From positions 522,853 through 586,852 of the forward strand of contig CAWINB010000004.1 in NCBI GenBank assembly GCA_963837465.1: a DNA stretch of 64,000 nt, given 5' to 3'. The notes under the pieces are model-generated. The model was given only the letters and a program-made list of their open reading frames with translations. It ran no database searches and was not told the origin of the DNA. This DNA is from Candidatus Doudnabacteria bacterium (lineage in GTDB: Bacteria; Patescibacteriota; Doudnabacteria; UBA920). Positions 3,321 to 33,639 of the stretch are shown here, one piece after another; positions within the stretch are counted from its first letter, which is position 1, and each line of letters begins with the position of its first letter. A program made the translations under genes and the position numbers.

Positions 3321-3326
3321 AGCCAT

Positions 3327-15291: not shown

Positions 15292-15429
15292 CTGCGTCCC
15301 CCAAAAAATCTTCCCTGTTCCCGAACCTGTTTTTAAAAAATCAAAAAATTGTTTCCACCCCACAAACACAATGGGCTGCGCTAAGCGCAGCCCTTGGGAA
15401 AGTTGGAAAAATTCCTTTGTGTAATATCT
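15292..15429 (+). repeat. Serine-recombinase 3'-end module, copy b (remnant in the opposite orientation to SR1)
   Basis: CTGCGTCCCCCAAAAAATCT...GGGCTGCGCTAAGCGCAGCCC...GTGTAATATCT. Encodes a ...LFLKNQKIVSTPQTQWAALSAALGKVGKIPLCNIL remnant (ORF 15285-15479). Confidence 0.6.
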
Positions 15430-15884
15430 TGGTGAATTTTCTTAGTGAAGCTCACACCTATTATATCCAAAACAGCTAACTTTGCCTACCCCATTACCCC
15501 CTGCAATACACCCTTGCCGAGGCCAAAACTTTAGCCTAAAATGGAAGCAACTGGTACTTTCCAGCTGTATGAACAGCTGTATGAACATCATTCATACAGT
15601 TTGGCTGTTAAACCCCTTAATTCCATTACCTCTCACTACTCCAAATACCCCTGACTACTATATATCACCAGATAATCTAACTGAACGACAAAATAGATAA
15701 TAATACTAAAAATAATAATAACTAAAATACTATACTTAAAATACTAAAATACTTAATACTAACTAAATACAAATATACTAAACTAACTTAAAACAAACCA
15801 AAAAAACAAGGGAAACAGAGAGGGGAAAAGTGGGGGGGTAGTTTCTCCCGCCGCCGGAGGCGGCGGTTTAGAGGGGGTGGACTG
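15430..15884 (+). repeat. 0.5-kb repeat family, copy 1
   Basis: Starts TGGTGAATTTTCTTAGTGAAGCTCACACC. 270-bp conserved core with a 72-codon ORF (MPTPLPPAIHPCRGQNF...) and hairpin CTGTATGAA-CATCA-TTCATACAG. AT-rich low-complexity spacer. G-run box GTGGGGGGGTAG...CCGCCGCC-GGA-GGCGGCGG...AGAGGGGGTGGA. Confidence 0.7.
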
Positions 15885-15908: not shown

Positions 15909-17534
15909 ATGGCAACTTCCAAATACGTTGTCGCCCATCCGGTCTCCCGTACCCCTTTGCCACCGTATTATCTTTTGCACCAAGGCGGCGCAGCAGGACA
16001 GGCCGTCTTGTCCCACCAGTTCAACCAAATGCCTGCGTGGCTTCAGACAGGTTCTCACATCGCCTCTTCCTTATTTTCTCTACTGGTTGTATATTTCATA
16101 CTAAGCTGGCTAGGATTTTTCCCCAAACACGCTTTTGAGAAGATAAAACTTAGAAAAAAGGACTTGGAAGCAGAATTTAAAGATAGTCTGTATTTTGAAA
16201 TCACCATCCCTAAAAATTCCCAAACCACGGCGTTCCAAGTCCAGCAAAAAATCCTCAAAGCCTTCCATTCAATTTACCAAGACCCGGTGGAAGGTGCTCA
16301 TAATTTTTCCACTACCTTTAGCCTAATTTATTTCTTCCAAAAGCTCTGGCGGCATTGGAAAGTCAAACGCAGTAAACAAGTATTTTTCAGTATGCAGATT
16401 TGGGCCCAGCACCCGTATATCTCCTTTAGGCTACAGGTGCCGGGGGCTGACTTTGGGCGCATTGAAAAGGCCATTTTCAATGCCTATCCCAATGCGGAGA
16501 TTACTATGCTAGAAAAATCCAAAGCCCTTGAGGAAATCAAGCAATTTCCACAAGGCTTTTTAAGTTACGGCGAAACTACTATTGAGGGACAATTTTACCA
16601 TAGAGTTAAAACCTTAAAAGACGTATCATCAGACCCTGTAGACTCTATTATCTCGGTTATGGAAGGTCTAAAGCCAGGGCAGTTTATGGCCTACAATATT
16701 TTAATCTCCCCTTCTTCCCATTACTTCAATCAAATCATCCACTACCTTATTGAAGAGCAGGAACAAAAAGGGGTGGTAGACCAAAACCAAAGAAGATTGG
16801 CCATTCAGAAATTTGGCAGCGGTTCGGAACTGGCCAATGCCCTAAACTCCGCCATGATTGAAAAGATGAAAGCCCCTCTTTTCCAGACCATTATTTCCTA
16901 CTGGGCTATTGCCGATACCAAACACAGTGCGGAAGATAAACTCAAAAGTATCCAAGGGGTGTTAACGGAAATCAATCAAAAGAACATGAATACCCTTAAG
17001 CACCAACACCTGTTTACCAAACAGGTGGGTGCTCTTGAGCGGAAAGGCAAGCTGACAGAGATTATCGCCCAAAAGCCGGTGTTCCGCCTAAAGCGTTTTC
17101 CCTTATGGCCATTTGCCAAGTTCAAAAACTACGGGCAGGTCATCTCTGACAGCGAGCTATACTCTTTCTGGCACTTGCCGAATACCACGGGAGGTACGGT
17201 ATCTTCCATTAGGCTGACTAAATTTAAAAAACTCCCGGCCAGCCAAGCGCTTCGGGAATATTCAGACAATTTTTTCATCTCCCTGGGTCATGCCAATTTC
17301 CGTATGCAGGAAGAAACACCAATCGGCATTGCCAGCTGGGAAGACATGAAAAAGCACGTTTACATCCTTGGCGGTACCGGCTCCGGCAAGTCCGAGACTT
17401 TAAAAACCATTCTCCATAGCCTACTGGAAAAAGACAACGACATATCCGCTTACCCTATTGAGCTTCGCCAGGGTTATGGCTGGCAAAAAGAATGCCCTAG
17501 CAGCATTACCCAAAACTGCCCTACTGATAATTGA
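15909..17534 (+). CDS. HerA/FtsK/VirB4-VirD4 superfamily ATPase, N-terminal part (gene interrupted by a frameshift)
   Basis: 541 aa. N-terminal TM segment LFSLLVVYFILSWLGFF. Walker A ILGGTGSGKSETL near its C-terminus. The frame changes between 17404 and 17476. Confidence 0.55.
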   Translation: MATSKYVVAHPVSRTPLPPYYLLHQGGAAGQAVLSHQFNQMPAWLQTGSHIASSLFSLLVVYFILSWLGFFPKHAFEKIKLRKKDLEAEFKDSLYFEITIPKNSQTTAFQVQQKILKAFHSIYQDPVEGAHNFSTTFSLIYFFQKLWRHWKVKRSKQVFFSMQIWAQHPYISFRLQVPGADFGRIEKAIFNAYPNAEITMLEKSKALEEIKQFPQGFLSYGETTIEGQFYHRVKTLKDVSSDPVDSIISVMEGLKPGQFMAYNILISPSSHYFNQIIHYLIEEQEQKGVVDQNQRRLAIQKFGSGSELANALNSAMIEKMKAPLFQTIISYWAIADTKHSAEDKLKSIQGVLTEINQKNMNTLKHQHLFTKQVGALERKGKLTEIIAQKPVFRLKRFPLWPFAKFKNYGQVISDSELYSFWHLPNTTGGTVSSIRLTKFKKLPASQALREYSDNFFISLGHANFRMQEETPIGIASWEDMKKHVYILGGTGSGKSETLKTILHSLLEKDNDISAYPIELRQGYGWQKECPSSITQNCPTDN

Positions 17535-18783
17535 CCCTAAAAACGACTTTGCCACGGATTTATTAACCATGATTCCTGAGAACAGGAAACAAGATGTGGT
17601 TTACTTTAATCCGCAAAGACAAAAGAACAGGCCTTTGGCTTTTCCGTTCTTTTCCAAGTTTTCCGGGGACAAGACCGATGAGGAAAAACTGGAGTTTTTA
17701 ATCTCCATTATGAAAAGGTTTGTGCAAATAGATTCCAGTTATTCTTGGGGGCCGGAACTGGAAAACATCCTAAGGCAACTGTTTGCTACGGCTTTTGTCT
17801 TGCCCGAGCAATCTCTGTCCGGCCTTGACTTACTGCTCCACCAGCAAAGCCAGATTAAAAACATTATCAGATATCTGCCGGAACGGCTTAAGGGGTTTTG
17901 GCAGGATTCAATTTTAAACCGAACAAACAACGATCTGGCTAAGTATTTGGCCACAACTAACAACAAGTTGGGCAAGTTTTTGGATTATCCCGAGTTTATG
18001 AATATCGTGGACAGACAGGGTACAAAAATATCCTTTGAAGATATGATTAACACCGGCAAGATATTTATAGCTAACCTTGGCTCTTCCAGCGAGCAGATGA
18101 AAAAGTACTATTCAGTTTATCTAACCGCCCATATTGCCGAGGCTATCTTTGGTCAGGCTAGGTTTAACAGCGAGGACAGAAAACCAGCAGTCTTTGTGGT
18201 AGATGAGTTCCAAAGAGTGGCCAGCGACATCTTTGAGACCTTGTTTTCCGAGGTTAGGGCTTTTAACACGGCCTTAGTCATCTCTAACCAGTTTATGGGT
18301 CAGCTGGATATTCGTATACAAAAATCCATAGAGTCCAACATTGCCACCAAAATCTTTATGCGGACCCAGTCGGTGGATGACGCCGAGATTGCCGAAAAGA
18401 TATTAGGCCAGAAGGTTTTAGTTGAAGACATTATTAACCTGCCCACAGGTACCGCTTACATCAAGACTTTGGTTAATGGTATACCCCAAGACCCCCTGTC
18501 TATTAATATCCAGAAAACAGAACATCCCAAAGACGCTTCCAAAGACATGGAGGATTACTTTATCAATATGGCTATGGACAAGTACGGTACACCCCTTGAG
18601 GACATATTAAAAGAGCGCACCGCCATAAATTCTCTCTATTATTCAGGAGGGCAAGAAAATAAATTTCACGAAGCTATGGGAAAGCATAGAACCTTTGCCG
18701 CCCCAGATCAAGGAACGGGAGGCAAAGACCAGCAGATGGAAGAACCGCCGGAGCCGGAGGATCCAGAGCCACAAAATATTTAA
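17458..18783 (+). CDS. HerA/FtsK/VirB4-VirD4 superfamily ATPase, C-terminal part
   Basis: LLIIDPKNDF (DP-x-G/N-D/E motif that follows Walker A in this superfamily), Walker B VFVVDEFQ, TALVISNQ. TTG start; continuous with 15909-17534 after a +1 shift. Confidence 0.55.
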   Translation: MSFARVMAGKKNALAALPKTALLIIDPKNDFATDLLTMIPENRKQDVVYFNPQRQKNRPLAFPFFSKFSGDKTDEEKLEFLISIMKRFVQIDSSYSWGPELENILRQLFATAFVLPEQSLSGLDLLLHQQSQIKNIIRYLPERLKGFWQDSILNRTNNDLAKYLATTNNKLGKFLDYPEFMNIVDRQGTKISFEDMINTGKIFIANLGSSSEQMKKYYSVYLTAHIAEAIFGQARFNSEDRKPAVFVVDEFQRVASDIFETLFSEVRAFNTALVISNQFMGQLDIRIQKSIESNIATKIFMRTQSVDDAEIAEKILGQKVLVEDIINLPTGTAYIKTLVNGIPQDPLSINIQKTEHPKDASKDMEDYFINMAMDKYGTPLEDILKERTAINSLYYSGGQENKFHEAMGKHRTFAAPDQGTGGKDQQMEEPPEPEDPEPQNI

Positions 18784-18805
18784 CAATTTTTGATTTTAAA
18801 ATTAT

Positions 18806-19708
18806 TTGCCCATGAATTTTAATAACCCCAATGTTAAATTAACCCCAAGACCCCAAGGCCAAAGCTACCACCTGCACATTAACCAATCGGCTTTGGAAGT
18901 TTTAGGTTTGATTTTTGAATTTAAACTGGCCACCGGCTGGCATATCTCCAGATTTTTAACCCAAAAGGACTATGTCCAATACGTCTATTTAAAGCTCCGT
19001 AGGATGTGGCAGGCAGGTTACTTGGAAAGCTTTAAAATTTCATCGGAATCCGCAAACGGCATCCCCGTCTACTATATACTCTCCCGCTCCGGCCTTAAAG
19101 TCTTAGCCGAACACGGCCTTTATTCTGAAAGCCAGCTGTCAAACTATCCCAAGGCTAAAACTCTGTTTTCTCCGCACTTGTTTAAACACGAATCAGCAGT
19201 TGTGGAACTGGCCAGTCTAGAAGCACAAAACAAGACAAAAGATTTAGACATCAAATTTAAAGGTGAACTAAGTTCCCAAGGCCAAAACATCTTAAGCGAC
19301 AAGACTGTTGAATCCTTAACTCCCGATTATACCGTCTATTATACCCATCAAGGCCAAAGTCATTGTGTCTACAGCGAATTGGAACGCACGTCAAAATCCA
19401 AAACAGCCCAGATTAAGAAAATTGAAAGATACTTGGATTTTTTGAGTTTTGAGCAAAGACAGGCTATAACGTTAAGGCTCATTTTCCAAACAGCGGGCAT
19501 GGAGCAGTCGTTTTGGTTAAACGCCTTAACTAATTTACCCAGGCTCCATAACATCAGGGTTGTTACAACAAATATTGCACTATTACACACGCCTGACAAG
19601 TTCCTTAAGCCCATTTATAGCTCGGAGCAAACAGTCAAACTCGGCAGGTTTGGCGGGCGGCTGACTGTTGATACATCCGGGCGTGTAAAGCTTTTTGAGT
19701 TTTTATGA
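18806..19708 (+). CDS. Replication-relaxation (Replic_Relax) family protein
   Basis: 300 aa. The N-terminal winged-helix-like segment LEVLGLIFEFKLATGWHISRFL resembles PF13814. Sits next to the coupling-protein-like ATPase. Confidence 0.5.
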   Translation: MPMNFNNPNVKLTPRPQGQSYHLHINQSALEVLGLIFEFKLATGWHISRFLTQKDYVQYVYLKLRRMWQAGYLESFKISSESANGIPVYYILSRSGLKVLAEHGLYSESQLSNYPKAKTLFSPHLFKHESAVVELASLEAQNKTKDLDIKFKGELSSQGQNILSDKTVESLTPDYTVYYTHQGQSHCVYSELERTSKSKTAQIKKIERYLDFLSFEQRQAITLRLIFQTAGMEQSFWLNALTNLPRLHNIRVVTTNIALLHTPDKFLKPIYSSEQTVKLGRFGGRLTVDTSGRVKLFEFL

Positions 19709-19856
19709 GTAGCGCGGTTACGGAGCTGTTAGATAAATGCGCGCGCAAGGGCGGGCGAGGCAAAGCGCATTACCTATTAATTTTCCCTCCTTTATATCTT
19801 AAAGGAGGTTTCGTTCTTTCAAACTAGTATGCGAATCAGCAGTTACTATAACGTGG

Positions 19857-20282
19857 TCAAGTACGTGAATACCAAGGAGCTTTCCCGCATCTTACCAATC
19901 GCTTGGTAACAGCAAGGTCTTCTGTTGATGGCTCAAGGCTACCGCTTGGGTGGTTATGGACGAATATCACTGAACAGCAATTCTTTAAAATAGCAGTCCT
20001 AAAACATTCCCGTGGATGGATAATGCTAGCGTTTAATGTGCCAATGCTAACCGTTTCTTTACCGGTAATTCTGTTTTGAGTGTCTAGAAAAAAGACTCGG
20101 AAGTTTTCTTTTCGGGCTTTTTTAATGTCTTTACACCTTAAGGCAATTTCAAGCGGACTGCAAATTGCATCCCGCACTGCCTTAACGTTTAAATTGTTAC
20201 TTACGTAGCTTTGGGCTTTCTCTTTAGCCTCGTTTTCGTTTTCAGCTGTGAAGCTGTAGTTAATGTTGATTTGGTATTCCAT
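19857..20282 (-). CDS. radC: RadC-like JAB/MPN-domain protein (3'-truncated)
   Basis: VIFVHNHPSGSLEPSTEDLAVTKRLV carries the HNHPSG JAMM motif. The ORF ends about 25 aa earlier than typical RadC. Good SD AAGGAG upstream. Confidence 0.7.
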   Translation of the reverse strand: MEYQININYSFTAENENEAKEKAQSYVSNNLNVKAVRDAICSPLEIALRCKDIKKARKENFRVFFLDTQNRITGKETVSIGTLNASIIHPRECFRTAILKNCCSVIFVHNHPSGSLEPSTEDLAVTKRLVRCGKAPWYSRT

Positions 20283-20304
20283 AAAACTCCTTTTTGATTA
20301 CTTG

Positions 20305-20419
20305 TTATGGCAACCAAAAAGAACTCTGGAATGTTTTGGCAGTCAAGGGTGCAGCCCCGCGGCGATTTATGCCCAGGCGTGCAGCGGAATAAAGAAGCCG
20401 CCCCTTTACGGCCAAAAAC
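20305..20419 (-). promoter_or_regulatory. Conserved structured leader element, copy A (upstream of radC)
   Basis: Shares TTATGGC...TGGCAGTCAAGGG...GCGATTTATGCCC...GAATAAAGA...CCCTTTACGGCCAAAAAC with 23494-23610. P1 TCAAGGG/CCCTT. P2 differs compensatorily between copies (GCGGC/GCCGC here, AAAAGC/GCTTTT in copy B). Confidence 0.35.
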
Positions 20420-20605
20420 CCAGAGTTACAATGGGAAGCCCTACGGAAGCAAAAAAGTTTTTAGTTTTAAAAAAATATAAACAAAACAAAAAAGCCCACC
20501 GTGTCCAGATAATGAGGCTGGGCGGCTGCTTTTTCGCTTTTTCGTTTCATGCTGAAAGCTCAACGCTTCAGCAAACCTCCTTTTATAATTTCTCTAGCTT
20601 TCTAA

Positions 20606-21283
20606 TTATTTGACCTGCCGCAGACCGCCATGTGGATGTCTCGGCCTTAGCTGCTCTTCATCGAGCGAATACTCCCGCTCAATGTGATTGGGGTTTACCA
20701 CCAGAATAGCCGTAGTCGGTCCGCCCCATGCCTTAGTACTTAGCAGGGTGCAGATACCTGTCCTTGGATTACCCGGTTTCTCGACGGCCAACAAGGTGTA
20801 ATCCAAACCAGCCCGCTGCTGGCCACCTTTTGACATATCGTAAAACCCAATATCCCTGGTGTCTCCTTTTTGCCGTCTGGGGCAATCCTCGCCGTGGCCG
20901 CAGACTTGGAACACCGCGACCAAGCTCGTTGGCATATCTTCCTTTATTGCCCAGCGAAGCCGAGTCGCCCCTATCAGACAAAGATCGAAGCGAACGCCCC
21001 GCATTTCCAGAATCCACTCGTTTACTACCGGCGGGACTTGGGCGGTCAGATCCAGAAAATGGATGGCTTGGTTTTGGGGCAGTAAGCCACCTTGTTCGTC
21101 GCGTGGTGCAATAACCGTTCTGCCCATCCCCAAACCAATATCAGCGGCGGCTCGCAAAAACCCTTGCAGCCAAGGAGGCTCGGTACTGAAGCCTGCTGGC
21201 AAACAGCCGGGGACGGACATTCCGTGACTATGAGCGTCACCCAGGACATCCTCGATCAGATCAAGCGATGGCATTACTATCAT
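20606..21283 (-). CDS. Hypothetical protein, GC-rich islet (possible metal-dependent phosphoesterase)
   Basis: 225 aa. Local GC about 55% against about 40% background. LGDAHSHG and CGHGED resemble weak metal-binding motifs. Confidence 0.35.
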   Translation of the reverse strand: MIVMPSLDLIEDVLGDAHSHGMSVPGCLPAGFSTEPPWLQGFLRAAADIGLGMGRTVIAPRDEQGGLLPQNQAIHFLDLTAQVPPVVNEWILEMRGVRFDLCLIGATRLRWAIKEDMPTSLVAVFQVCGHGEDCPRRQKGDTRDIGFYDMSKGGQQRAGLDYTLLAVEKPGNPRTGICTLLSTKAWGGPTTAILVVNPNHIEREYSLDEEQLRPRHPHGGLRQVK

Positions 21284-21531
21284 TTTTTTGATTTCCTTTT
21301 TTTTCTCGGCCCCGGCCAGTCGGCTAGGAACCGGCTAAAGTCAGCCTCGGCGATGATCCAAGACTGGCCGATTTTTGATGCTTTCAGTCGTCCCTCCGCA
21401 ATCATCAGGGTGACCGAGACTTGAGTGACGCAGAGTTCCAGCGCAACTATTGATGTCGTCAGCAGGGCCTGTCCGCAACAGGGACAAAGCCCTGGCTGAT
21501 AATCCGATTTGTTCCTCATTTCGTTTCCCAA
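21280..21531 (-). CDS. Excisionase/AlpA-family HTH DNA-binding protein
   Basis: 83 aa. LCVTQVSVTLMIAEGRLKASKIGQSWIIAEADFSRFL matches the HTH_17/Xis-family pattern. Basic tail KKRKSKK. Confidence 0.65.
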   Translation of the reverse strand: MGNEMRNKSDYQPGLCPCCGQALLTTSIVALELCVTQVSVTLMIAEGRLKASKIGQSWIIAEADFSRFLADWPGPRKKRKSKK

Positions 21532-22571
21532 AGGTTTCCCGACCTAATTGGGTAGCCGCGCAATTCGGGTATCCCCAAAAAGGTTGAACCGCTTTCCCGC
21601 TCGATCACAATGTCAATCGCTGCGTGCGACAACCCAGGGAATATGGGGCTCTGGCTTACATACTCTACATGCATCCCTGAATACCATCCGGGGAGCGGTT
21701 CAGGCCAAACGCCTTTTTCATTCGGACAAGCCTTGGCCTCCAAACCGATCAAGGATTCGCCATTGTAGCCAGCAGAAACTTCCACCAGACGCAGGTGTCC
21801 CTCCGGCACGTCTTTGAGGCGATGAACGAACTTAACCCGCACGCCCCATCCCAGCGTTTTTGACAATACAACGGCGCAATCCGCGAACTTTCCTCCTATC
21901 ATTTTTGCCGTTGCGAGGAAGTAAGTATTGTTGAATCGGTCACGATAGCCTACTACCAACTCCTGCTTGGTGTCGAAAAGCTCTTGCAAGTCAATGGAGA
22001 TTTCCTCAATCTCTACCCACTGTCCGGGAAGCTTAAATCCGAGCCGATAGAAACGAAGTAACCAGGACAGCTTGAGACTTCGGAATTGAGTATCTCGCAA
22101 CTCTTCGTGGTCTTTTTTGCTGATTAGTCCCCGGTCGAAAAGGTAGTCAATGCATTCTTCCCAATTCAAGCGGTATACTTTTTCCAAAAGACCGTATAGC
22201 CTAAATGCTGACCATGTGTAACCGCCCTCGGTGGCAATTACCCAGCTATCGCTAATGCGCGCCACGCAGAATCCTGCTCCATTACCTTCCCTGTCACGAT
22301 GAGCGATGTTACCGTGCACTACTGCCGGCTTGTTGTTTTGCCGGGCAACCTGTAGATCACGCAAAATCATGTGACCCAGTTCTGCCGTGGTAGCGACGGG
22401 AGCAACCTCGCCAGATGCACGATCACATTTCATTTGGTTAGTAATCGCTTTATGGCCGTCTCCATCTTGAGCGCAATCTGACGAAGTAGAGAACACCGTG
22501 CCGCGTAAAGCGTCACACACCCAAAGCAGAAAACCGCCTACGATAAACCACGTCTTATAGACTAAATTCAT
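21516..22571 (-). CDS. Hypothetical secreted/membrane-anchored protein, GC-rich islet
   Basis: 351 aa. N-terminal hydrophobic segment WFIVGGFLLWVCDA. Overlaps the HTH gene start (operon). Confidence 0.4.
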   Translation of the reverse strand: MNLVYKTWFIVGGFLLWVCDALRGTVFSTSSDCAQDGDGHKAITNQMKCDRASGEVAPVATTAELGHMILRDLQVARQNNKPAVVHGNIAHRDREGNGAGFCVARISDSWVIATEGGYTWSAFRLYGLLEKVYRLNWEECIDYLFDRGLISKKDHEELRDTQFRSLKLSWLLRFYRLGFKLPGQWVEIEEISIDLQELFDTKQELVVGYRDRFNNTYFLATAKMIGGKFADCAVVLSKTLGWGVRVKFVHRLKDVPEGHLRLVEVSAGYNGESLIGLEAKACPNEKGVWPEPLPGWYSGMHVEYVSQSPIFPGLSHAAIDIVIERESGSTFLGIPELRGYPIRSGNLWETK

Positions 22572-23043
22572 TTAAACCCCCTTCAAATTTTTGCTTGTTT
22601 CCAGTCACATGGGTGGCGAAATTGCCAAAACCACGACTTTCGCACAAAACAAAACCGCCTCAATCTTTTGTGAAAGAGGCGGTGTTAAGAACGAATTAAA
22701 TCACGCTCAAGACGGCCGCTTCCAGCAAAGTTGCAGCCATCATCATGTTTAAATTTTTTAGATAAAAATTCATGGGAATAAAATAAAAGACCCTTTTGCA
22801 AGGGCCTTGAATGTTGAAGATTTACACAAAACAAAATTCAGCCCTTGCGATTAAGGTTTAACATTTTCATCATTTCAGTTTTGGCAGAAATTTGTCGGTT
22901 CATAAGCTTAAAATCATCTTACTCCAATTAAAGAAAAATGTCAATGGGAGGGTACCACCATTATTTATTTGCGCCAATTTTTTTGCACTTATGGCCCATA
23001 GAAAAAGCCACCCTGTGAAGGATGGCTAAATCTTGTTTTTGGT

Positions 23044-23205
23044 TTAAACTTCAAAATATTTCTTGATGTTAAGGTTGCAGGAGCCGCAACCCGGACAGGT
23101 AATGGTGTCCAGGTCAATGATTTCTTGCCTGCTGGCGCTCCAGCAATTTTGGCAGTTGGGGCAGGTGATTAAGTATTGGAAGTAGGCTGTTAGTGTTTTT
23201 AGCAT
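23044..23205 (-). CDS. Small zinc-ribbon protein (53 aa), not in ORF track
   Basis: MLKTLTAYFQYLITCPNCQNCWSASRQEIIDLDTITCPGCGSCNLNIKKYFEV with CPNC...CPGC pairs. Confidence 0.3.
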   Translation of the reverse strand: MLKTLTAYFQYLITCPNCQNCWSASRQEIIDLDTITCPGCGSCNLNIKKYFEV

Positions 23206-23267
23206 TTGTGTTTTGTTAATTATTTTAAGAAAGAATTTTTGTTTTTGTTTTGGTTTTGGTAAGCGGT

Positions 23268-23465
23268 CTAGAGGGAATTCTTGACCGTGATGTACGAGGA
23301 AACTTTTTTCCCGTAATCGTGGTAGTCGCTGGACTTGGGATCTACAGACTTTCTCAACTCCAAGTAGTAGTTGATACTTCTCTGCAAAGCCGCCTTGATG
23401 ATATTTGACTTCATCTCCGGCGTCAGTCCCTGTTTTGCGCTAACTGCCTTTTTGAATTGTGGCAT
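23268..23465 (-). CDS. Hypothetical small protein (65 aa)
   Basis: Strong SD AAAGGAG 7 nt upstream of ATG. Preceded on the minus strand by structured leader copy B. Confidence 0.35.
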   Translation of the reverse strand: MPQFKKAVSAKQGLTPEMKSNIIKAALQRSINYYLELRKSVDPKSSDYHDYGKKVSSYITVKNSL

Positions 23466-23493
23466 GTTAACTCCTTTCTTTGCTTAATTATTA

Positions 23494-23610
23494 TGGCGAA
23501 ATAACACTGGCCGCAGGTTATGGCAGTCAAGGGATTAAAAGCGATTTATGCCCTACGGGAAATAAAGAGCTTTTACCCTTGACCGGCCATAAACGGACAG
23601 TAAAATGGAA
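23494..23610 (-). promoter_or_regulatory. Conserved structured leader element, copy B
   Basis: TGGCAGTCAAGGG...TAAAAGC-GATTTATGCCCTACGGGAAATAAAGA-GCTTTTA...CCCTTGACCGGCCA. Nested helices P1, P2 and CCC-TAC-GGG. A hairpin AGAGCGGT-ATGAATA-ACCGCTCT with T-run at 23655-23690. Confidence 0.35.
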
Positions 23611-23997
23611 ATCCATAAGAAAGCAAAGGCTGTTTTAAAAGCCGTAGACAACATAAAAGAGCGGTATGAATAACCGCTCTACATTTTTTGGTTTGTATTA
23701 AAATTTATTGGGCTTGCTTTTACAAGTCCAATTCGTCTAGATCAATCCCTACATCTTCCATTCTTTGTAAGGCCTCGTCTGCGTCGCCATTGTTAATCTG
23801 CTCGGCTAATTCTTCCTTAAGCCCGTCTTCGTCAACTTCCATTCTGATTTCATCGTCCAAATCTTCAAGCGGCATAAATTTTTCATATTATACTTCAACT
23901 TTACCATTCAAATCTATCAACCATATTTTGGATTGCTCCTTTAATGCGGTCAATAATTCCTTGTCGTTCTTTAATTTTAGGCACTTCTGGTAGTAAA

Positions 23998-26700
23998 TCA
24001 ACAATTTCCTGGCCATTGGGCAGTTTTTGTGTGTAAAGGTATTCGCCAATCAGAATGCTCAAACTTTTCAACTGGAATATTTTCAGCCTTTGCAATGCTC
24101 TTTAAACTCGCGGAACGCTCACTTGCCCAAAAATCGCTAAAGGCTTTTTCAACATCGTCCGCTTTGCCGATTTTTGGCAAATTTTCTTCAATAAATTTCT
24201 TGATTAAGTCTTTTTTCTTACGAAGCTGGACATCCCTGTCAAATAAACGCAAAATTTCTTCAGTTTTCTTTTTGCGCACAACATCGGAAGTGCTGTTTTT
24301 AATCCCCGCTAGAAGCAAAATAATGTAGTCAAAATTAATAATATCTCTGGTTGTCAATTCAATTTCAAAATCAATCTGGTCTAAAATAGATTCGGGTCCG
24401 TTATTGTTATTTTTACGGTCTTCATAAACATCTAAGTATTTGCTCTGGTAATCAAAAAATTCTTGCTCGGTTATCCCGAGATCCATAAATGAAAAATCCG
24501 CAAAAGTTTCCAGTGATGATTTGATTCTTAGCAAGTCACGAAATGTCTTTATAAACTCCGCTTTTTCTTCCTCGCCCTCTAGTTCGTCAACAAATGCAAT
24601 AGTTGGCACCTTTTCTCGCAATTCAGCAAGTTTATCTTCAAACTCTTTTTTTTGCATTTCGTAAGGCTTTTTAAATACGACTTCTTTAGCGTTTTCGTCG
24701 CCAAAAAGCGCCAAGGCTGTATCGGTTGCCTCTTTTAAGTTCCTAAACGACACAATATTGCCGTGGGGCTTGTCGGAGTTCAGCAGCCTGTTAGTGCGCG
24801 AATACGCCTGAATAAGCCCGTGGTAGCGTAAATTCTTGTCTACATACAGCGTATTAAGCCGTGGGCTATCAAAACCTGTTAAAAACATATTTACCACCAA
24901 GACAAGGTCAACTTCCTTATTCTTGATTCTTTTTTGCAAGTCTCGGTAATAATCGTAAAAACGGTCGGTTGAAAAATTGGTAGAATATTGTTTGTTGTAA
25001 TCTTTTATGCAATTTTCCAAAAAGTCTCTCGAATGCTGGTTAATGACCGCCCCTTCATCATTAAACACATCCACATCGAGCATATCGGAACTTTCGTCCT
25101 CATTGGCTTTATAAGTAAAAATTGTCGCAAGGCTAAAATCTGCCGTTTTTTTATTTTTTAGTAATTTATAGTATTTCTTTAATATTTCAATACTGGAAAC
25201 GGCGAATAACGCGTTAAATTTTCCATTCTTTGTTTTTCGTTTCCAATCCGCCAGAACGTAATCAGTAATTTTATTTAGCCGGTCGTCGCTTTCCAAAACT
25301 TCTTTGGTGTTTATGCCTTCCACCAATGAATCTGCAAAAATATCCGCATCTAGCGTATCTGGGTCTTTTTGTTTGTATTTTCCAACGTATTCAACCGCAA
25401 AACCCAACACATTGTTGTCGGAAATTGCGTGGGTAATAATGTATTTGTGCAAACATTCTTCAAAAACATCCACCGTGGTTACGCCACCAACATTATTTTC
25501 GGCAAAAATTGGCGTACCGGTAAAACCAAAAAGCTGGGCTTTTTTGAAGAAGCCTTTTATCCGCGCATGGGTCTGCCCAAACTGGCTTCGGTGGCATTCA
25601 TCAAAAATCACTACCACTTTTTCATTAGCCAAATATTCAAATTGTTTTAAATACGATTCTCTCCCAATAGCAATATCCAATTTTTGAATTGTGGTAACAA
25701 TAAGTTTTCTGTTTTTGTCTTCCAATTGTTTAACCAGGCTGTAAGTGTTGTTCGTACCGTCCACCGCGCCTTCGGAAAAAGAATTAAACTCATTAGTTGT
25801 TTGGATGTCCAAATCCTTCCGGTCAACCACAAAAATCACTTTTTTGATTTCCGGTATTTGCGAAAGCACCTGGCTGGCTTTAAATGATGTTAAAGTTTTT
25901 CCCGATCCGGTTGTGTGCCAAATATAGCCATTTTTGTTAGTTTCCTTAACGCGTTTTTCAATAGCTCTAACTGCATAATACTGATATGGCCTTAGCACCA
26001 TTGGGATTTTGGTAGTCTCCGCCAGTATAATATATTCCGCAATCATTTTTGACACAGTACACTTTTGCAAAAATACGTTAGCAAATTCATCCAGTTGGTT
26101 AATTTTCCTGTTGTCTACATCTGTCCAATAAAAAGTCTGCTCAAATGATTGTTTTGAGTTATTGGAAAAATATTTTGTATTGACTCCGTTAGAAATAACA
26201 AAAATCTGTATATATTCAAATAATGTTCCGGTAAAAGAATGCTTATGATATCTCTGTATTTGGTTAAAAGCCTCTTTTAACTCCATCCCCCGGCGCTTTA
26301 GCTCCACCTGTACCAGCGGCAAGCCATTTACCAACAAAGTTACATCGTACCTGTTTTCGTACTTGCCCACCTGGGTAATTTGCTGTGCCACCTGATACTC
26401 ATTCTTGCACCACTGTTCCATATTAAAAAACCGCGCATAAAAGATACTCCCATCATCCCGGGTCAAAACAAACCTGTCCCGCAAAGTCTTGGCTTTCTGG
26501 AATCTATCACCTTTGTTTAAATGATTTAATATCCTTGTAAATTCATCATGCGTAAAAACTACCCCATTAAACTTTTCCAACTGCTTACGTAAATTGACTA
26601 TCATTGCAGCACTGTCTTCCAACACCACAGGTAAAAATCCCAACCGCCTAAGCTGCTCAATTAATGTTTTTTCAAGTTGTTGTTCGGATTGATGAGTCAT
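23998..26700 (-). CDS. hsdR: Type I restriction enzyme R subunit
   Basis: 900 aa. Motif [14 protein letters not shown], motif [11 protein letters not shown] (DEAD/DEAH-box helicase core), N-terminal nuclease-like region. Last gene of the hsdM-S...R operon. Confidence 0.9.
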
Positions 26701-26703
26701 AAA

Positions 26704-28605
26704 TTATGATTTATTATTCCATATTTCTTCTAATACAATAGTCCCACTATTAGGTCTATTTTTTTTATCTAGGAGATCAATGCTAACTTTTACTGGAATT
26801 TTTACAGCCAGACCTGCAAAAAAACAGCTACCTGTTGAAAGTATAGAAAGAGAGTCAAATGATAGTTTGTCTAAATAAGACACTGTTTTATTAATTGCAT
26901 TTATATCATAATTATTTACCAATTTGTGAATAAAATAATTATGCAACTGAGAGATAATTGTTGTAGAAATATCGTAAGGTCTTTGACTGGCAATTGTTAA
27001 AAAAACATTAAACTTTCTTCCTTCTTTGATTATTTCTTCGAATGTTTCAAGTCTATAATCTTTCCAGGTTTCACTTTCTCGTTCTGAGGAACTCGATAAA
27101 ATATTATGAGCTTCGTCTACAATTAAATGCAATGATTTGCCTTCATAATTATTTTTATGTTCTTCATAAAGTTTTTTGGCAATAATTAGGGGTAATGTTT
27201 TTTTAATTTCAAGATTAGTATTTTTTAAATTTAAAACAACTAAATTTTTACCAGATGGAAAAATTGAATTGCTACTTTCTGTATCTAATATCTTCTCTAT
27301 ATCTTTTTGTTTACTCTTTAATTTATTAATTGCTGGAGAAATATGCTCATTTTGAGCCTTATCATTATAGACATCAAATATTATTTGTAGGTAAAGAAAA
27401 TGTATTAGTTTTGAGATGGCATTTTTAGGGAAAACATAGGCATCAATTTTATTATATAAATCTAAGTTGACTATTTCCTCTTCAGAAATTTGTTTATGTA
27501 CCGTACTACGGGGTAACATAAAATAATTTAAAGTATTGTGCCATTCTGGTATTTTGATTGAATTTGTATCCGTATCTGATATACTCAGAATAATTTTTAT
27601 ATAATCTAATAAAATATGCGACTTTTCTTTTATAACCATTAACAAAATATCTTTTAATCTTTTTTTGAGAATATTTTTAAAAAATTCAAGTGGGTTATTA
27701 TCGTTGCCCATCTCATCTTTTTCTTTATGAATTTTCCTGTAAAAATCAATGGCTCTACTGATAAATGGTCTTTGAGTTTTGTCAGTAGCATTTGAAAGAA
27801 TGGAAATTAGTTCAACATTCATCAAATCGGCTTCTTTTAAGGGTATCTTTTTATCTGTTTCAATTGCACTTAATTCCTTTTTTGTATCTAAAAAATACAC
27901 TTGTTTATTTTCCGTTAGAATCTCATCTTTGTCTCCACCTTTAATTTCTTTTGCATATTCTCCATTAAAATCAAAAATAACAAATTTTGAATTTTCATTA
28001 AAATTGGAGTTGTCTTTATATAATTTAAATAGCTCATGATAAATCTTTGCCAAAGTATTAGACTTACCGCTACCGGTATTTCCAAAAATACCAATATGGC
28101 TGGCGAACAAACCGTTAACACTTACTTCAATTTCTTGAGAAGGCTCTTCTGTTAAAGGACCCAAGGGTATTTTTTGTTCTGTATCTTTATAAAATTGATG
28201 TAAGATATTAAATTCTTCTTTATCTAACAAATAACACTTGTTGTCAATTAATGGCATTTCTTTAATACCCTGCTCAAATTTAACTCCATCAAAATGTCCA
28301 AATAAAGTAACCTCTAAATATCGGACAATTTTTTGTTCTTCTTTATTATATTCTTCATTAAAAATCCTTTCGGTTGTGATAAATTCTCCCTCTACCTTAC
28401 CAATAATTTCAACAAACCCTTTCATAATTTTTACAAAACCACCAACAGAAACATTTTTTAAAATTTTGCCCTGATATAAAAGATGGGATGAGTTTTTATT
28501 TTTATTTACCTTAATTTTTACCTTTCTGCCCTCAACAGAAGAAACGTAGCCAATAATAAAAATTGACTCCTTAGTAAGGCTTCTTTGTATTTGTTCATTA
28601 CTCAT
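26704..28605 (-). CDS. HerA-like (DUF87) ATPase, defence-associated
   Basis: 633 aa. N-terminal HAS-barrel-like region (YLEVTLFGHF), Walker A GIFGNTGSGKSNT, Walker B LHLIVDEAHN. 3-bp gap to hsdR, 8-bp overlap with upstream gene. Confidence 0.7.
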   Translation of the reverse strand: MSNEQIQRSLTKESIFIIGYVSSVEGRKVKIKVNKNKNSSHLLYQGKILKNVSVGGFVKIMKGFVEIIGKVEGEFITTERIFNEEYNKEEQKIVRYLEVTLFGHFDGVKFEQGIKEMPLIDNKCYLLDKEEFNILHQFYKDTEQKIPLGPLTEEPSQEIEVSVNGLFASHIGIFGNTGSGKSNTLAKIYHELFKLYKDNSNFNENSKFVIFDFNGEYAKEIKGGDKDEILTENKQVYFLDTKKELSAIETDKKIPLKEADLMNVELISILSNATDKTQRPFISRAIDFYRKIHKEKDEMGNDNNPLEFFKNILKKRLKDILLMVIKEKSHILLDYIKIILSISDTDTNSIKIPEWHNTLNYFMLPRSTVHKQISEEEIVNLDLYNKIDAYVFPKNAISKLIHFLYLQIIFDVYNDKAQNEHISPAINKLKSKQKDIEKILDTESSNSIFPSGKNLVVLNLKNTNLEIKKTLPLIIAKKLYEEHKNNYEGKSLHLIVDEAHNILSSSSERESETWKDYRLETFEEIIKEGRKFNVFLTIASQRPYDISTTIISQLHNYFIHKLVNNYDINAINKTVSYLDKLSFDSLSILSTGSCFFAGLAVKIPVKVSIDLLDKKNRPNSGTIVLEEIWNNKS

Positions 28606-29719
28606 GCTTTTCAGGTTTCAAGTTAATTCGCTTAAAAAAAACTTCTGTAACCGTACTTAAATCATAAGAATGGATCTCTTCTTCTCCCTCAAATTCATTC
28701 AAAACAATCGTTATGTTTGGAAACTTGAGAATTTCCATCTTATCTTCCATTTCTTTTCTTTTTTCTTTTGAGTGTAAAAATATGAAAATCCGCAGTGTCG
28801 GATTTGATTTTGCAACCCGTTTAGTTATTTCTTTAATATGTTGGTCTGTCATTGAAAAGCCAATCACAAAGAGAACAGAATTTACACGTTCTAATTCACT
28901 AGAATATGAGCGTAATAACTCATAATAATATTTATTTAGTACTGTTTCAGAAAACTTTGCACTCTCTGGATTTACAACAAGTATTTTTTCTTTATAATCA
29001 TCTGTAAACCTTTTCCCAGTCCTTTTTAACAACTTACTATCAAAATGATCAAGCTTAGAAGAAAGCAATATTTTTCTATCTTCTCCTGTCTTGCTGGTTT
29101 CATATTTCCAAGTAAGCGAACCATGAACTTTTAAAATATTAAAAATTGGGATTTCTGATTTATGATCAAAATGCAAACTTCTCTGAAAGACAGATTTTTT
29201 AAAGTTAGATAAAGAAAACGTAGGGTTTAATCTTCCTGAAAAACCATCATTATAATCAATGAACAAATCTTCTAAAGTTTTTTCAAAAAATGGATCAATA
29301 TTTGTAGTAAATATGTTAACTTGTTTATTAAGTATGGTAGTTTCTCTTTCTAAAATTAGCTTAGTTATTGTTTGCAAAAATTTTTCATAAGATTTTTTTG
29401 TATCCCTAAAATCAATTTCTTCAGTCCTGTCCTCACCGTTACTATTTTTTAAACTATTTCCTGTTGCATTTTTTATGGAATCTGTTGAAAATTGTTGTGA
29501 AAAAACCTTTTTATTTGGAAGCATTACCGTTTCTATATACTTTTTATAACCTAGTATTTGCTCTTTGGTTTTGTTGTCCCTAATTGCATTATTTATTTCG
29601 CTTTCAATACCACCTAAGATTGGCAAGAATGGAGTAGAAATACCAGCACCAAAAAGAAAGTTCACATTCGAACTCTGAATTATTTCTTTTAGTTCTGTTA
29701 TAAATTTATCTTTTTTCAT
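28598..29719 (-). CDS. SIR2-like NAD-binding domain protein, defence-associated
   Basis: 373 aa. VNFLFGAGIS (sirtuin GAGIS Rossmann motif) and LKVHGSLTW (catalytic His in the HG motif). Confidence 0.65.
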   Translation of the reverse strand: MKKDKFITELKEIIQSSNVNFLFGAGISTPFLPILGGIESEINNAIRDNKTKEQILGYKKYIETVMLPNKKVFSQQFSTDSIKNATGNSLKNSNGEDRTEEIDFRDTKKSYEKFLQTITKLILERETTILNKQVNIFTTNIDPFFEKTLEDLFIDYNDGFSGRLNPTFSLSNFKKSVFQRSLHFDHKSEIPIFNILKVHGSLTWKYETSKTGEDRKILLSSKLDHFDSKLLKRTGKRFTDDYKEKILVVNPESAKFSETVLNKYYYELLRSYSSELERVNSVLFVIGFSMTDQHIKEITKRVAKSNPTLRIFIFLHSKEKRKEMEDKMEILKFPNITIVLNEFEGEEEIHSYDLSTVTEVFFKRINLKPEKHE

Positions 29720-29725
29720 ATACCT

Positions 29726-30928
29726 CTATACAAACAACCCTTGCATCAAGCCTTTTTTCCATTGCTCGGCTTGGGTGATTTGTTGTTGTTTAGATTCTAT
29801 TACATTGTCGACCGAAGTTAAAAAATCTGCGATTTTTTGCTGTTCCGGAAGGGTTGGAACGGGTAATTTTATATTTGAATATTTAGAAATCCAATGCCTG
29901 CCGTGTCCGCCAATTTCATATTTAATTTGGGTCATAGCTTCATATATAAATTTTATATCGGTCCCATCTTTTGCTTTTAAAATTTTCATCGCCGATGATT
30001 TAACTTTAAATGGAAAATCAACAAACTGCGATGTTGTAGTAAAATCATCAAATATTATTACAGGCAAATCAGTTGTCAGAAAAATTCCACTCGTTTCGTC
30101 TGTAAATCCCAATATAAAAGTTTTACCGGCAGTTAAAACAGGGGTTTTGTAACTACTATCGTATTCTGTGCTTTTTACAATATAATTAGTTGGCTGTTCA
30201 TAATCTAAGCAATCCGCCAACTTTTTCCCTTCCCATTTGGGAAAATCTTTTCCTTTTTCATTTTTAAAACGGATTTCTTGGGAAAATATTTTTTGTACTA
30301 TTCCTTTTTTGTAGGATTCAAAAGATTCTTTTTGCTTTTTTAAATTTTCTATCCACTCATCAACTGCCCCAACAAAACCTATTAACTTTTTTTGTTCGGG
30401 CAATGAGGGTGTATGAATACTAAAATTAGAAACTTGGGCCAAAGAAATATTACTTTGAGCCAATCCTACTTTTAGTCTGTTAATTTGGTTTTGAATAAAA
30501 TCCGAACGCAAAACTTCCCTTATATATTTTGAACTAACCCCACTTTTTGGTGAAATAATCGCAAGTGCCTGGTTTGTATTGGCAGGTAGGACATCTTTAT
30601 TAGCCATCACCACCCGCCCAAGAGCCCCAGCAATTGAAAACAAAATATCACCTTCTTTTAACTGAGACCTTTTTAAGGCCTGATTACAATTTTCATCAAT
30701 ATGAGCAAATTTATCAATTAAAAAATTGCCGTCTTCGGTAATTGATTCAATCTTAATAAAATTAATTCCGCTCTTAGTATAGTTAAACCCCAACGTAGTC
30801 GGGGTAGTCCCTTTTGTAATTCTATCGGAAATATCCCCCAACTTTTTTTCCTCCCACTCACCAGAAAAACCCGGAAAGCGGAGTTTTGGGATTTTTTTAT
30901 TTTGCAGTTGTGCGGCTTTTGCTGGCAT
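29726..30928 (-). CDS. hsdS: Type I R-M specificity subunit
   Basis: 400 aa. Two target-recognition domains separated and followed by conserved LPSLPEQKKLIGFV... and LPVPTLPEQQKIADFLTSVD helices. Confidence 0.8.
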   Translation of the reverse strand: MPAKAAQLQNKKIPKLRFPGFSGEWEEKKLGDISDRITKGTTPTTLGFNYTKSGINFIKIESITEDGNFLIDKFAHIDENCNQALKRSQLKEGDILFSIAGALGRVVMANKDVLPANTNQALAIISPKSGVSSKYIREVLRSDFIQNQINRLKVGLAQSNISLAQVSNFSIHTPSLPEQKKLIGFVGAVDEWIENLKKQKESFESYKKGIVQKIFSQEIRFKNEKGKDFPKWEGKKLADCLDYEQPTNYIVKSTEYDSSYKTPVLTAGKTFILGFTDETSGIFLTTDLPVIIFDDFTTTSQFVDFPFKVKSSAMKILKAKDGTDIKFIYEAMTQIKYEIGGHGRHWISKYSNIKLPVPTLPEQQKIADFLTSVDNVIESKQQQITQAEQWKKGLMQGLFV

Positions 30929-32602: not shown

Positions 32603-33022
32603 ATGTACCAAATAAAATTGTCGGTAAGCGAGCTTAAGAAGATTAAACAACTACAAGAAAAGGAGAAAAATGCCAGAGTTTTGCGCCGTCTTGAAGCCAT
32701 AAAGCTCTTAAGCCAGGGGCAAAGCCATCAGGAGATCGCGGAAGCGCTGAATGTATGCATGGATACAATCACAGATTGGGTAAAAATTTACCAATCAGGG
32801 AAACTCCCAGGATTATGTGAACTGCAATTTAAAGATAAGCGAAAGTCAAAAATTAATGATTATGTAGAGCAAATCAAACAGGATGTAAAAGACAACACCA
32901 TTACGACTTTAGCTGAAATGCAGGCCTGGATTAAGGAAAAGTACTCAATTGAAATGGAACAAAGCTGGTTATGGCGTTGCTGTAAAAAAAACTCAATTTA
33001 TCTTACAAAAAAACCCGTATAG
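32603..33022 (+). CDS. IS630 transposase OrfA (HTH part)
   Basis: LRRLEAIKLLSQGQSHQEIAEALNVCMDTITDWVKIY is a Tc1/IS630-type HTH. Ends just after A AAA AAA (33007-33013). Confidence 0.75.
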   Translation: MYQIKLSVSELKKIKQLQEKEKNARVLRRLEAIKLLSQGQSHQEIAEALNVCMDTITDWVKIYQSGKLPGLCELQFKDKRKSKINDYVEQIKQDVKDNTITTLAEMQAWIKEKYSIEMEQSWLWRCCKKNSIYLTKKPV

Positions 33023-33639
33023 TTCCCAGCGGCGCGCCGACACAGGAAGTTCAGAAGGATTTCGTAAAGTTCATTCTTAAAACCATAAAGAAAGCCAATG
33101 AGGATAAGGATATTGTACTATTTTTAGACCCCGCCCACCAAGTCCACAATGTTGATAATAGCTACTGCTGGCAACTTAAAGGTAAAAATGAAACCAAAGC
33201 CGTGCCATCCAATAGCGGCCGGGAAAGATTGACCGTCATCGGTGCCATTGGCGTGGAAAACTTCAAACCGACTATTCTGACGACGACCGATAACTGTGAT
33301 GGGCAAATGATGACGGTATTTTTAGGGGAAATCAGAAAAGATTATCCTGAAGCCCAAACCATATACATTTTCCTGGATAACGCCAAGTACAACCACAGTA
33401 ATTTGGTAACAGCGGAAGCAAAACAGTTAGGTATTGAACTGTTGTTTTTGCCGCCATATTCCCCAAACCTTAACTTAATTGAACGGCTCTGGAAATTCAT
33501 GAAAAAGAAAGTTAAAGCCAATAAGTATTACAAAACTTTTGTTGAGTTTACAAGCGCTATACATGATTTTTTTAAAAACATCGCTCAATACAAACCGGAG
33601 CTTGAAAAACTGTTAACCCTTAATTTTGAGATCATATAA
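32986..33639 (+). CDS. IS630 transposase OrfB (DDE part, via -1 programmed frameshift as an OrfAB fusion)
   Basis: The -1 frame is open from 32986: ...KKTRIVPSGAPTQE...LFLDPAHQVH...IYIFLDNAKYNH...PPYSPNLNLIERLW (D, D, E). Confidence 0.7.
   Translation, partial: KKLNLSYKKTRIVPSGAPTQEVQKDFVKFILKTIKKANEDKDIVLFLDPAHQVHNVDNSYCWQLKGKNETKAVPSNSGRERLTVIGAIGVENFKPTILTTTDNCDGQMMTVFLGEIRKDYPEAQTIYIFLDNAKYNHSNLVTAEAKQLGIELLFLPPYSPNLNLIERLWKFMKKKVKANKYYKTFVEFTSAIHDFFKNIAQYKPELEKLLTLNFEII

Follow-up and report, generated by a model that had tools for sequence, protein, structure and literature searches.

Promoters that function only on single-stranded DNA (ssDNA) are the means by which anti-defence and establishment genes of F-like and IncI plasmids are expressed within the first minutes of entry. 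Experimentally, such promoters are known only from enterobacterial plasmids, where three sequence classes have been described (PMC12672017). Repeated copies of them are found upstream of leading-region operons in F and pESBL, and the three classes are unrelated to each other (PMC9849209, PMC12672017, PMC11541004). The Frpo/ssi elements of F and ColIb-P9 are, as far as the work of Masai and Arai (1997) is reported in PMC9849209 and PMC11541004, stem-loops of the transferred strand that rebuild a -35 and a -10 box. Class 2 and class 3, which lie upstream of ardA/klcA and M.EcoGIX in pESBL and F, are non-homologous hairpins whose acceptance as ssDNA promoters rests on structure, boxes and 5' rapid amplification of cDNA ends (RACE) (PMC12672017). 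Frpo-type hairpins are also able to prime the synthesis of the complementary strand, or to stall it (bioRxiv 10.64898/2026.01.09.698686). Here, we describe a pair of hairpins from a Candidatus Doudnabacteria bacterium that resemble these promoters in their layout. They lie in a stretch of 64,000 nucleotides (assembly GCA_963837465.1, contig CAWINB010000004.1, positions 522,853 to 586,852), which we call the window and in which all coordinates are counted from the first letter. The two hairpins, copy A and copy B, are diverged copies of one element; copy A stands before a RadC-like gene and copy B before a gene for a small basic protein of 65 aa, both on the minus strand. We consider it probable that each copy is a Frpo-like ssDNA promoter and that the two belong to a new, compact family in an integrative conjugative or mobilizable element of Patescibacteria (the candidate phyla radiation, CPR).

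Fold and promoter boxes of the two copies

Both copies lie exactly where an earlier note on this DNA had placed them (20305-20419 for A and 23494-23610 for B), and nhmmer finds only these two in the window. Aligned with each other they have a mean column identity of 75% over 247 columns, and the blocks TGGCAGTCAAGGG and GCGATTTATGCCC are identical between them. Both give a long imperfect hairpin when folded. Compared with dinucleotide shuffles, the fold of the sense RNA reaches z = -6.9 for copy B and z = -2.5 for copy A. The element had been described as about 115 nt long. It is real, but its actual size is larger, a palindrome of ~150-165 nt; in DNA-parameter folds of copy B it has an upper hairpin that a bubble separates from a lower duplex (Table 1). 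Each copy does precede a Shine-Dalgarno (SD) sequence and an ATG on the minus strand, and the distance of ~50 nt that had been given becomes ~40 nt when measured from the hairpin base to the ATG (20322 to 20282 in A, 23506 to 23465 in B). In a sliding DNA-fold scan of the plus strand copy B ranked second of 3,200 segments, and no promoter boxes were seen in the other strongly folding regions of the window.

The element is not confined to this locus. A genome scan detected it in metagenome-assembled genomes (MAGs) of Candidatus Doudnabacteria and in one MAG labelled 'Saccharibacteria', and a scan of metagenomes gave 27 loci, 22 of them genuine. With the instances added by nhmmer on the DNA fetched from relatives, our alignment A2 holds 47 distinct instances, all from Patescibacteria (Doudnabacteria-type) MAGs and metagenomes. 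Loci L008, L012, L022, L031, L038, L046 and L048 were dropped as unrelated chance matches to the pattern. L029, at the end of a contig, has the 5' half of an A-type and the 3' half of a B-type copy; it was taken as an assembly or recombination chimera and left out. A covariance model built from the 47 instances, a check that the earlier note had proposed, recovers exactly A and B from the window, with E-values of 8e-12 and 3e-24, respectively.

The structure is well supported by compensatory changes. RNAalifold gives 23 consensus pairs on A2, 13 of them with compensatory double changes. In the fuller structure of 50 pairs, 92.0% of the cells are paired, compared with 82.9% in shuffled alignments and 33-52% when the partners are slid against each other. 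Double changes occur at 20 of these pairs and in 217 cells, numbers that were reached in none of 500 shuffles in either case, and the covariation score is 0.237 against 0.100 in the shuffles. Helix 1 is paired in 88% and helix 2 in 85%. At pair 16-190 of the outer helix 22 instances have C-G and 18 have U-A, and pair 44-157, which closes the stem at position -12, is A-U in 46 of 47. A-type and B-type copies differ at six of the eight pairs of the basal stem and pairing is kept in both; a third lineage (L009, L023) has CCCG/CGGG in place of TTTTGGC/GCCAAAA. The exchange of the inner helix on which the earlier note had built its case for a real fold, AAAAGC/GCTTTT in B and GCGGC/GCCGC in A, is genuine and recurs in L044, L035 and L037. 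Its argument from covariation was thus correct, and it is stronger across 47 instances than two copies could show.

The copies also exchange parts. Three variants of the apical segment are shuffled between A-type and B-type copies, and in some copies an A-type hairpin follows an upstream flank of B-type. From the sequences this mixing, seen in A2, in L029 (2576-2720) and in L025 (12612-12792), suggests gene conversion or recombination between the repeats.

In all 38 instances scanned the best sigma-70-like site lies on the strand opposite the genes and at one fixed position. This antisense site scores 13.2 bits on average, while the best sense sites score 7.0 bits at scattered positions; shuffled sequences reach 9.3 +/- 1.7 bits as the best of both strands. 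The scoring matrix served only for ranking, and the sites in the window were confirmed by an independent scan. Nine instances found later likewise carry antisense boxes, with spacers of 16-18 nt. Across the family the -35 box reads TTGAC(C/G/T) and lies in the stem, the spacer of 15-18 nt co-varies with the other arm, and the -10 box reads TAnnAT. The invariant columns of A2 are, in sense orientation, A-T-n-n-T-A at the 5' foot of the hairpin and AA in its 5' arm. On the other strand these are the TAnnAT and the TT of TTGAC, with no other invariant columns there, and they are not loop or junction bases.

When the template strand of the genes is folded, the -35 box and the spacer are paired and -12 is the last paired position of the stem. 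Next comes a bubble (9-11 nt), in which the 11 nt of positions -11 to -1 face 9 nt on the template side; this template side varies more than any other part of the element in A2. A second duplex then resumes at the conserved CCATAA/TTATGG and continues into AAGCAAAG/CTTTGCTT; in copy B its distal strand pairs with 23478-23496 (CTTTGCTT..TTATGG). We have worked through the geometry of this fold. In it, the arm that bears the boxes is the non-template strand, and the template strand with which it forms a duplex continues into the gene; hence the antisense promoter points into the gene once the template strand is folded. In outline the modelled fold is that of an open promoter complex. Folding with DNA parameters favours the template over the sense strand in 37 of 38 instances, with a mean difference of 3.4 kcal/mol.

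The sense strand offers little in comparison. A promoter of the form TTGCTT-N16/17-TTTACT/TGTAAC had been proposed upstream of both genes. The string is present and is unconvincing as a promoter: most instances do not have the -11 A, the -10 box is poor, and the TTGCTT that would be its -35 box is half of the conserved outer helix, where it pairs as helix 1 with the AAGCAA directly before the SD. In copy B it is the distal strand of the lower duplex that, read on the sense strand, gave this '-35'. A decent sense promoter, TTGCTT-16-TATAAT, is found in three instances.

Table 1. Positions of the hairpins, their promoter boxes and neighbouring features in the window
Feature	Position	Strand	Remarks
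Copy A, full palindrome	20291-20455	+ (template strand)	DNA-parameter folds; pair counts
Copy A, upper hairpin	20322-20427	+	three-way apical variant; final pair A20322-T20427 is promoter position -12
Copy A, -35 box TTTACG	20405-20410	+	TTGACG in most A-type relatives; both scans
Copy A, -10 box TACAAT	20427-20432	+	16-nt spacer; both scans
Putative start site of radC	20308-20310	-	in the conserved GCCATAA; from geometry and conservation
Copy B, full palindrome	23478-23628	+ (template strand of minus-strand genes)	DNA-parameter folds; pair counts, 47 instances
Copy B, upper hairpin	23506-23601	+	final pair A23506-T23601 is promoter position -12; folds
Copy B, -35 box TTGACC	23579-23584	+	gene-distal arm, paired in stem; independent scan and matrix scan
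Copy B, -10 box TAAAAT	23601-23606	+	16 nt after -35; first T alone paired
Copy B, bubble, template side (9 nt)	23497-23505	+	faces 11-nt non-template side, 23602-23612
Copy B, lower (downstream) duplex, distal strand	23613-23628	+	CCATAAG..AAGCAAAG; helices 1 and 2
Putative start site of 65-aa gene	23492-23496	-	A of CCATAA, ~30 nt 5' of ATG; from geometry and CCATAA conservation
Terminator-like hairpin, bidirectional	23658-23680		directly upstream of copy B; scan
65-aa basic protein gene	23268-23465	-	SD at 23472-23475
53-aa zinc-ribbon gene	23044-23205	-	second in module B; terminator after it at 23006-23027
GC-richer islet	20469-22999	-	2.5-kb insertion between module B and copy A; comparison with relatives
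RadC-like JAB-domain gene	19803-20282	-	frameshift near codon 131; reading frame as read 20282-19857
Conjugation genes converging on cassette	15909-19708	+	strand opposite radC and 65-aa genes
Type IV coupling protein gene	15909-17534 and 17458-18783	+	frameshift-split into overlapping reading frames
Replic_Relax nicking protein gene	18806-19708	+	PF13814; PHROG 'replication initiation by nicking'

We propose the following model. The element would move as ssDNA, with the plus strand of the window, the template of radC and the 65-aa gene, as the transferred strand. In this strand each palindrome would fold on itself and thereby restore the -35 box and the spacer as a duplex, while the -10 box on the gene-distal arm would stay single-stranded from -11 on. 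With the bubble following and a duplex again at about +1, the structure would resemble a pre-opened promoter. The sigma-70 RNA polymerase of the host could bind here and read the gene-proximal arm outward through the hairpin base. Transcription would start near CCATAA, ~30 nt 5' of the ATG, and the RadC-like gene, or the 65-aa gene together with the 53-aa gene, would be transcribed ahead of complementary-strand synthesis. In double-stranded DNA (dsDNA) the boxes would point in the direction opposite to the genes; the modules have no good sense promoter and have terminators upstream, and would go silent. A sense terminator-like hairpin lies upstream of the module in 31 of 44 instances and one that acts outward in 22 of 44. 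The bidirectional hairpin upstream of copy B would insulate the module from read-through and also stop outward transcription from the boxes in dsDNA. In loci with several copies all copies are co-oriented.

Points against the model and rival explanations

Several observations weigh against this model. The same boxes make a good outward-facing promoter in dsDNA, which could serve a divergent integrase gene (L001, L006) or make a short RNA. The counts of G-U and A-C mismatches, in two versions of the test, do not tell which strand folds. The radC relatives L020 and L050 have no such hairpin, and it is therefore not universal for radC. The element in the window is degraded, with frameshifts in the coupling protein gene and in radC and with VirB4 absent, so that the copies in the window may be relics. 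In L003 radC and the convergent gene of the type IV secretion system (T4SS) are just 17 bp apart, so that an origin of transfer (oriT) is not immediately adjacent there. In the F plasmid, which served as control, Frpo1 and Frpo2 gave only weak boxes with our simple matrix (5.8 bits, proximal arm, TTGACG-17-TTTTGT), and the match in layout to class 1 is not confirmed. Finally, a recent survey doubts that most T4SSs of Patescibacteria conjugate, on the ground that relaxases are rare or mostly missing (PMC12102498, 2025).

The earlier note had read the copies as cis-regulatory leaders of the riboswitch or thermometer kind. In a general form this would mean a hairpin in the 5' untranslated region, transcribed from a weak upstream promoter or by read-through, that acts on the stability, the processing or the translation of the radC and 65-aa messages. 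The helices do co-vary, the sense RNA of copy B folds far better than its shuffles, and the distance from the hairpin to SD and ATG is fixed. A-type copies have in addition a small extra hairpin before the SD, with the variants GCTT/AAGC, GATT/AATC and GGTT/AATC, and the three instances with a decent sense promoter fit as well. However, a credible sense promoter is missing in most instances, and its supposed -35 lies within a helix, so that the RNA would lose half of the outer pairing. The upstream terminators (31/44) also speak against read-through. The SD is outside every helix and not sequestered, with its GGAG 3 nt past the last pair. Among the mismatches in the helices A-C (48 cells) is as common as G-U (33 cells), and this lack of preference for G-U is unlike a functional RNA helix. 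Searches of Rfam with the window and its relatives, at the gathering score and at E <= 10, gave nothing relevant, the radC motif included. The invariant bases are those of an opposite-strand -35 and -10, and TAnnAT and TTGAC at a spacing of 15-18 nt would have no explanation. An RNA role leaves those features that are most conserved unexplained, and we regard it as unlikely.

A second possibility is that the boxes form an ordinary dsDNA promoter that fires outward, into a short RNA or a divergent gene such as an integrase, with the palindrome as an operator or an incidental inverted repeat. The strong boxes on the plus strand would suit this, as would the terminator-like hairpins that follow 60-100 nt outward in 22 of 44 instances and the integrase gene that lies in the outward direction in L001 and L006. 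But the transcript from A-type copies would be antisense to the preceding gene, A/T-rich and poorly conserved, and in L003 the outward direction meets convergent chromosomal genes. Such a promoter gives no reason why the spacer and positions +1 to +20 co-vary with a partner 50-150 nt away, nor why the stem stops at -12. We consider it quite unlikely.

Promoter-mimicking hairpins in ssDNA are also used for priming. The ssoA and ssoU sites of rolling-circle plasmids, the single-strand origin (sso) of ICEBs1 and the minus-strand origin of filamentous phages recruit RNA polymerase in this way. These origins are strand- and orientation-specific; a replicon has one of them, it gives rise to a short primer, and no SD and reading frame are coupled to it. 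If the copies were single-strand origins, or ssi-type priming sites, the polymerase would make only a primer for the complementary strand and no mRNA. The logic of a hairpin with a promoter is identical and the conjugative context fits, and for Frpo both functions are reported (PMC12672017; bioRxiv 10.64898/2026.01.09.698686). Unlike single-strand origins, however, the copies number two or three per element, stand at a fixed distance from SD and ATG and are each tied to one of two gene families, where a single site would be enough for priming. They also do not contain the CS-6 motif (TAGCGT/A) of ssoA-type origins. A purely priming role is in our opinion very unlikely.

The idea that A and B are direct repeats from the integration of the GC-rich islet between them, or its att sites, which their position on either side of it in direct orientation had invited, is refuted, since islet-free relatives hold both copies in the same order, tandem modules contain up to three copies, and the islet junctions lie outside both copies, where the islet replaces ~30 nt. 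Dispersed palindromic repeats (miniature inverted-repeat transposable elements, Correia elements or repetitive extragenic palindromes) were considered as well and rejected: there are just two copies in 64 kb, and all true matches of the genome and metagenome scans lie upstream of radC or the 65-aa gene.

Modules, islet and conjugative surroundings

The two copies head two different modules, and this association holds across the family. As the earlier note had suggested checking, we looked at the neighbours of the other copies: A-type copies are followed by RadC-like genes, B-type copies by the 65-aa protein, which is the sole gene family found 3' of them, and no other family occurs. Relatives of the radC gene encode 160 aa, and in the window the last 30 codons run on in another frame to ~19803. 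Metagenomes of Patescibacteria commonly contain homologues of both RadC and the 65-aa protein. The 65-aa protein has no match at significant or curated thresholds in Pfam, PHROGs, NCBIfam or PDB. It gave one weak match in PADLOC, to SspE (E = 1e-4, 18.7 bits), and AlphaFold models it, at low confidence (pLDDT 67), as a hairpin of two helices. A 51-aa extremely acidic reading frame (MPLEDLDDEIRMEVDEDGLKEE..., 23720-23875), for which no family match was found, is situated between the cassette and hsdR, immediately upstream of the terminator of copy B.

The islet between the modules is a later insertion, as the comparison with relatives indicates. Its GC content is 48.9%, that of its flanks 38-43%. 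It consists of three minus-strand reading frames of 351 aa, 83 aa (HTH_17/excisionase-like) and 225 aa, and has its own conventional promoter (TTGACA-17-TAAGAT, 22944-22916). The two large frames have no match in Pfam, PHROGs, NCBIfam or PADLOC, and neither a recombinase nor flanking repeats were seen at 20469-22999. Both copies occur without the islet in L001, L003, L006, L028, L037 and L044, where they are ~0.7 kb apart. L001, L003 and L006 show the compact order of element, 65-aa gene, 53-aa gene, terminator, element and RadC gene inside ~0.9 kb. With blastn against L044, L028, L037 and L003 the homology breaks at about 23000 of the window and returns at 20467-20468, and L044 has only ~30 nt at the place of the islet. 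Some elements carry three tandem modules (L014, L025, L006).

The cassette faces conjugation genes. In seven of seven independent loci with conjugation genes in reach, it lies downstream of and opposite to genes for the coupling protein, Replic_Relax protein or VirB4 and converges on them. The Replic_Relax gene directly follows the coupling protein gene at three loci (18806-19708 in the window, 2945-3832 in L025 and 6017-6913 in L028), and its product is a candidate relaxase of the Patescibacteria-type T4SS. The intact order is seen in L025: coupling protein, Replic_Relax protein, several membrane proteins, a VirB4/TraC-like ATPase and an M23 peptidase, with the cassette opposed to them. What the window has, next to a tRNA gene and the gene of a large serine recombinase, is a degraded form of this order. 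VirB4 was not found in it, and the element looks degraded, or mobilizable only. A search for oriT in the intergenic region between radC and the relaxase gene gave a terminator-like 9-bp inverted repeat alone. Rolling-circle replication of ICEBs1 from oriT is co-directional with its conjugation operon. By likeness to ICEBs1, the transferred strand would be the coding strand of the operon and the template for the genes that face it, which would agree with the order of genes seen here.

Further features of the window deserve mention. On the strand of the cassette the mobile element carries a defence island with an anti-phage pair of SIR2 (28598-29719) and HerA (26704-28605), which sits inside a type I restriction-modification operon (hsdM 30931-32508, hsdS 29726-30928, hsdR 23998-26700). 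A family of repeats of ~130-540 nt with 82-99% identity occurs in both orientations at 15302-15838, 43334-43790, 34345-34742, 53109-53444, 12479-12626 and 54355-54581. These repeats adjoin the tRNA gene (12407-12480) and serine recombinase genes (12392-14014, 35001-36287, 39324-41054), and they may represent ends of elements or sequences related to att. An IS630-like transposase gene lies at 32603-33639, and a reading frame of 2192 aa at 45199-51777 contains many diverged internal repeats with periods of ~570-860 nt. In relatives, genes of diversity-generating retroelements, for the accessory protein bAvd and a reverse transcriptase, adjoin the cassette: in L001 (7190-10238), L006 (10562-11989), L015 (2887-4761) and L028 (3143-4105). 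The window also contains a perfect 38-nt palindrome with the halves CCGTTTGCGCTAGCGTAC and TAGTACGCTAGCGCAAACGG at 55765-55802 and unusually stable hairpins at ~60762-60850, ~62250-62330 and ~38480-38700, all without promoter-like boxes.

Distant relatives and comparison with known systems

In diverged or GC-rich radC cassettes the layout of the boxes is kept, while the remaining sequence drifts. L018, from a 'Binataceae' MAG, has a ~220-nt hairpin with TTGACA-15-TACAAT in its distal arm, which folds at -68 kcal/mol on the template strand and at -56 kcal/mol on the sense strand. L051 carries TTGAGG-16-TACAAT in a miniature version of ~100 nt, and L052 has two sites, TTGACG-16-TACACT and TTGATA-15-TACAAT. 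The covariance model, built from the element core, recovers L051 (two copies) and L052 with E-values from 1e-19 to 9e-6, and with them three of these four sites; L018 is not recovered by it. In L018, a GC-rich MAG of another phylum, the cassette of a 66-aa gene and radC (3294-4010, 4430-4760) comes after a DUF932 gene, and the DUF932 family is present in the leading region of F too. The principle of a hairpin promoter may thus be widespread beyond CPR. A wider proposal, which we put forward tentatively and hold to be somewhat short of an even chance, is that the hairpins form a self-contained, compact class of 'pre-melted' ssDNA promoters native to conjugative elements of CPR/Patescibacteria with diverged relatives in GC-rich phyla. 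It would imply delivery of ssDNA by the T4SS, the identity of the transferred strand and a promoter that reverses its direction.

If this wider proposal holds, the hairpins, by their presence, strand and orientation beside the Patescibacteria-type T4SS, would be the first sequence-level evidence that such T4SSs deliver ssDNA into recipients. They would reveal which strand is transferred, and the promoter would reverse its direction once the DNA becomes double-stranded. If they act as ssDNA promoters, they would also be the first of these outside enterobacterial plasmids and a sign that the tiny CPR bacteria conjugate. This bears on the doubts raised in PMC12102498: the T4SS operon described here has a Replic_Relax nicking protein, and it faces a cassette whose sole credible promoters need ssDNA. 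The layout, with the -35 box in the stem, the stem end at -12, a bubble and a downstream duplex, would also allow uncultured bacteria to be searched, without recourse to homology, for leading regions and transferred strands. The element is short (~160 nt) and near consensus, which makes the hypothesis directly testable.

One further structured element is known from the same genetic neighbourhood. The radC RNA motif of Rfam, reportedly described by Weinberg et al. in 2010, is said to be a structured RNA upstream of radC and of other DNA-related genes of mobile elements. Our element is likewise conserved, structured and upstream of radC; in contrast to that motif, it is not matched by the model even at E <= 10. 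Sequence similarity to Frpo/ssi was not found either: copy B gave no blastn hit in 72,556 plasmids, and nhmmer against the F leading region gave only E > 0.5. Copy B also had no match by blastn in a phage collection, and two pattern scans of viral contigs found none.

The resemblance to the enterobacterial promoters thus lies in the architecture. As in Frpo/ssi of class 1, a stem-loop of the template strand rebuilds -35 and -10 boxes, and there are repeated, diverged copies, each heading a small establishment operon of a conjugative element. They differ in size (~150-165 nt here, ~330 nt there) and in host (Patescibacteria and Enterobacteria), and the boxes described here are much nearer to the consensus. 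In our control with plasmid F, the leading genes point towards oriT, and the Frpo hairpins and their template-strand bias were reproduced; in both systems the more stable fold is thus that of the template strand. The hairpin at the antirestriction gene of F (class 2/3) has, by our own assignment of the boxes, its best boxes as TTGCAT-15-TAAGAT on the distal arm, with a mismatched -10 and then a duplex, and this layout is identical to that of copies A and B. Unlike classes 2 and 3, which are not homologous to it and have been validated by RNA sequencing and RACE in transconjugants, the present family is a prediction from sequence. If this prediction is right, the hairpins are a fourth, unrelated and unusually clean family of ssDNA promoters, and the strategy would be ancient or have arisen convergently across very distant bacteria.

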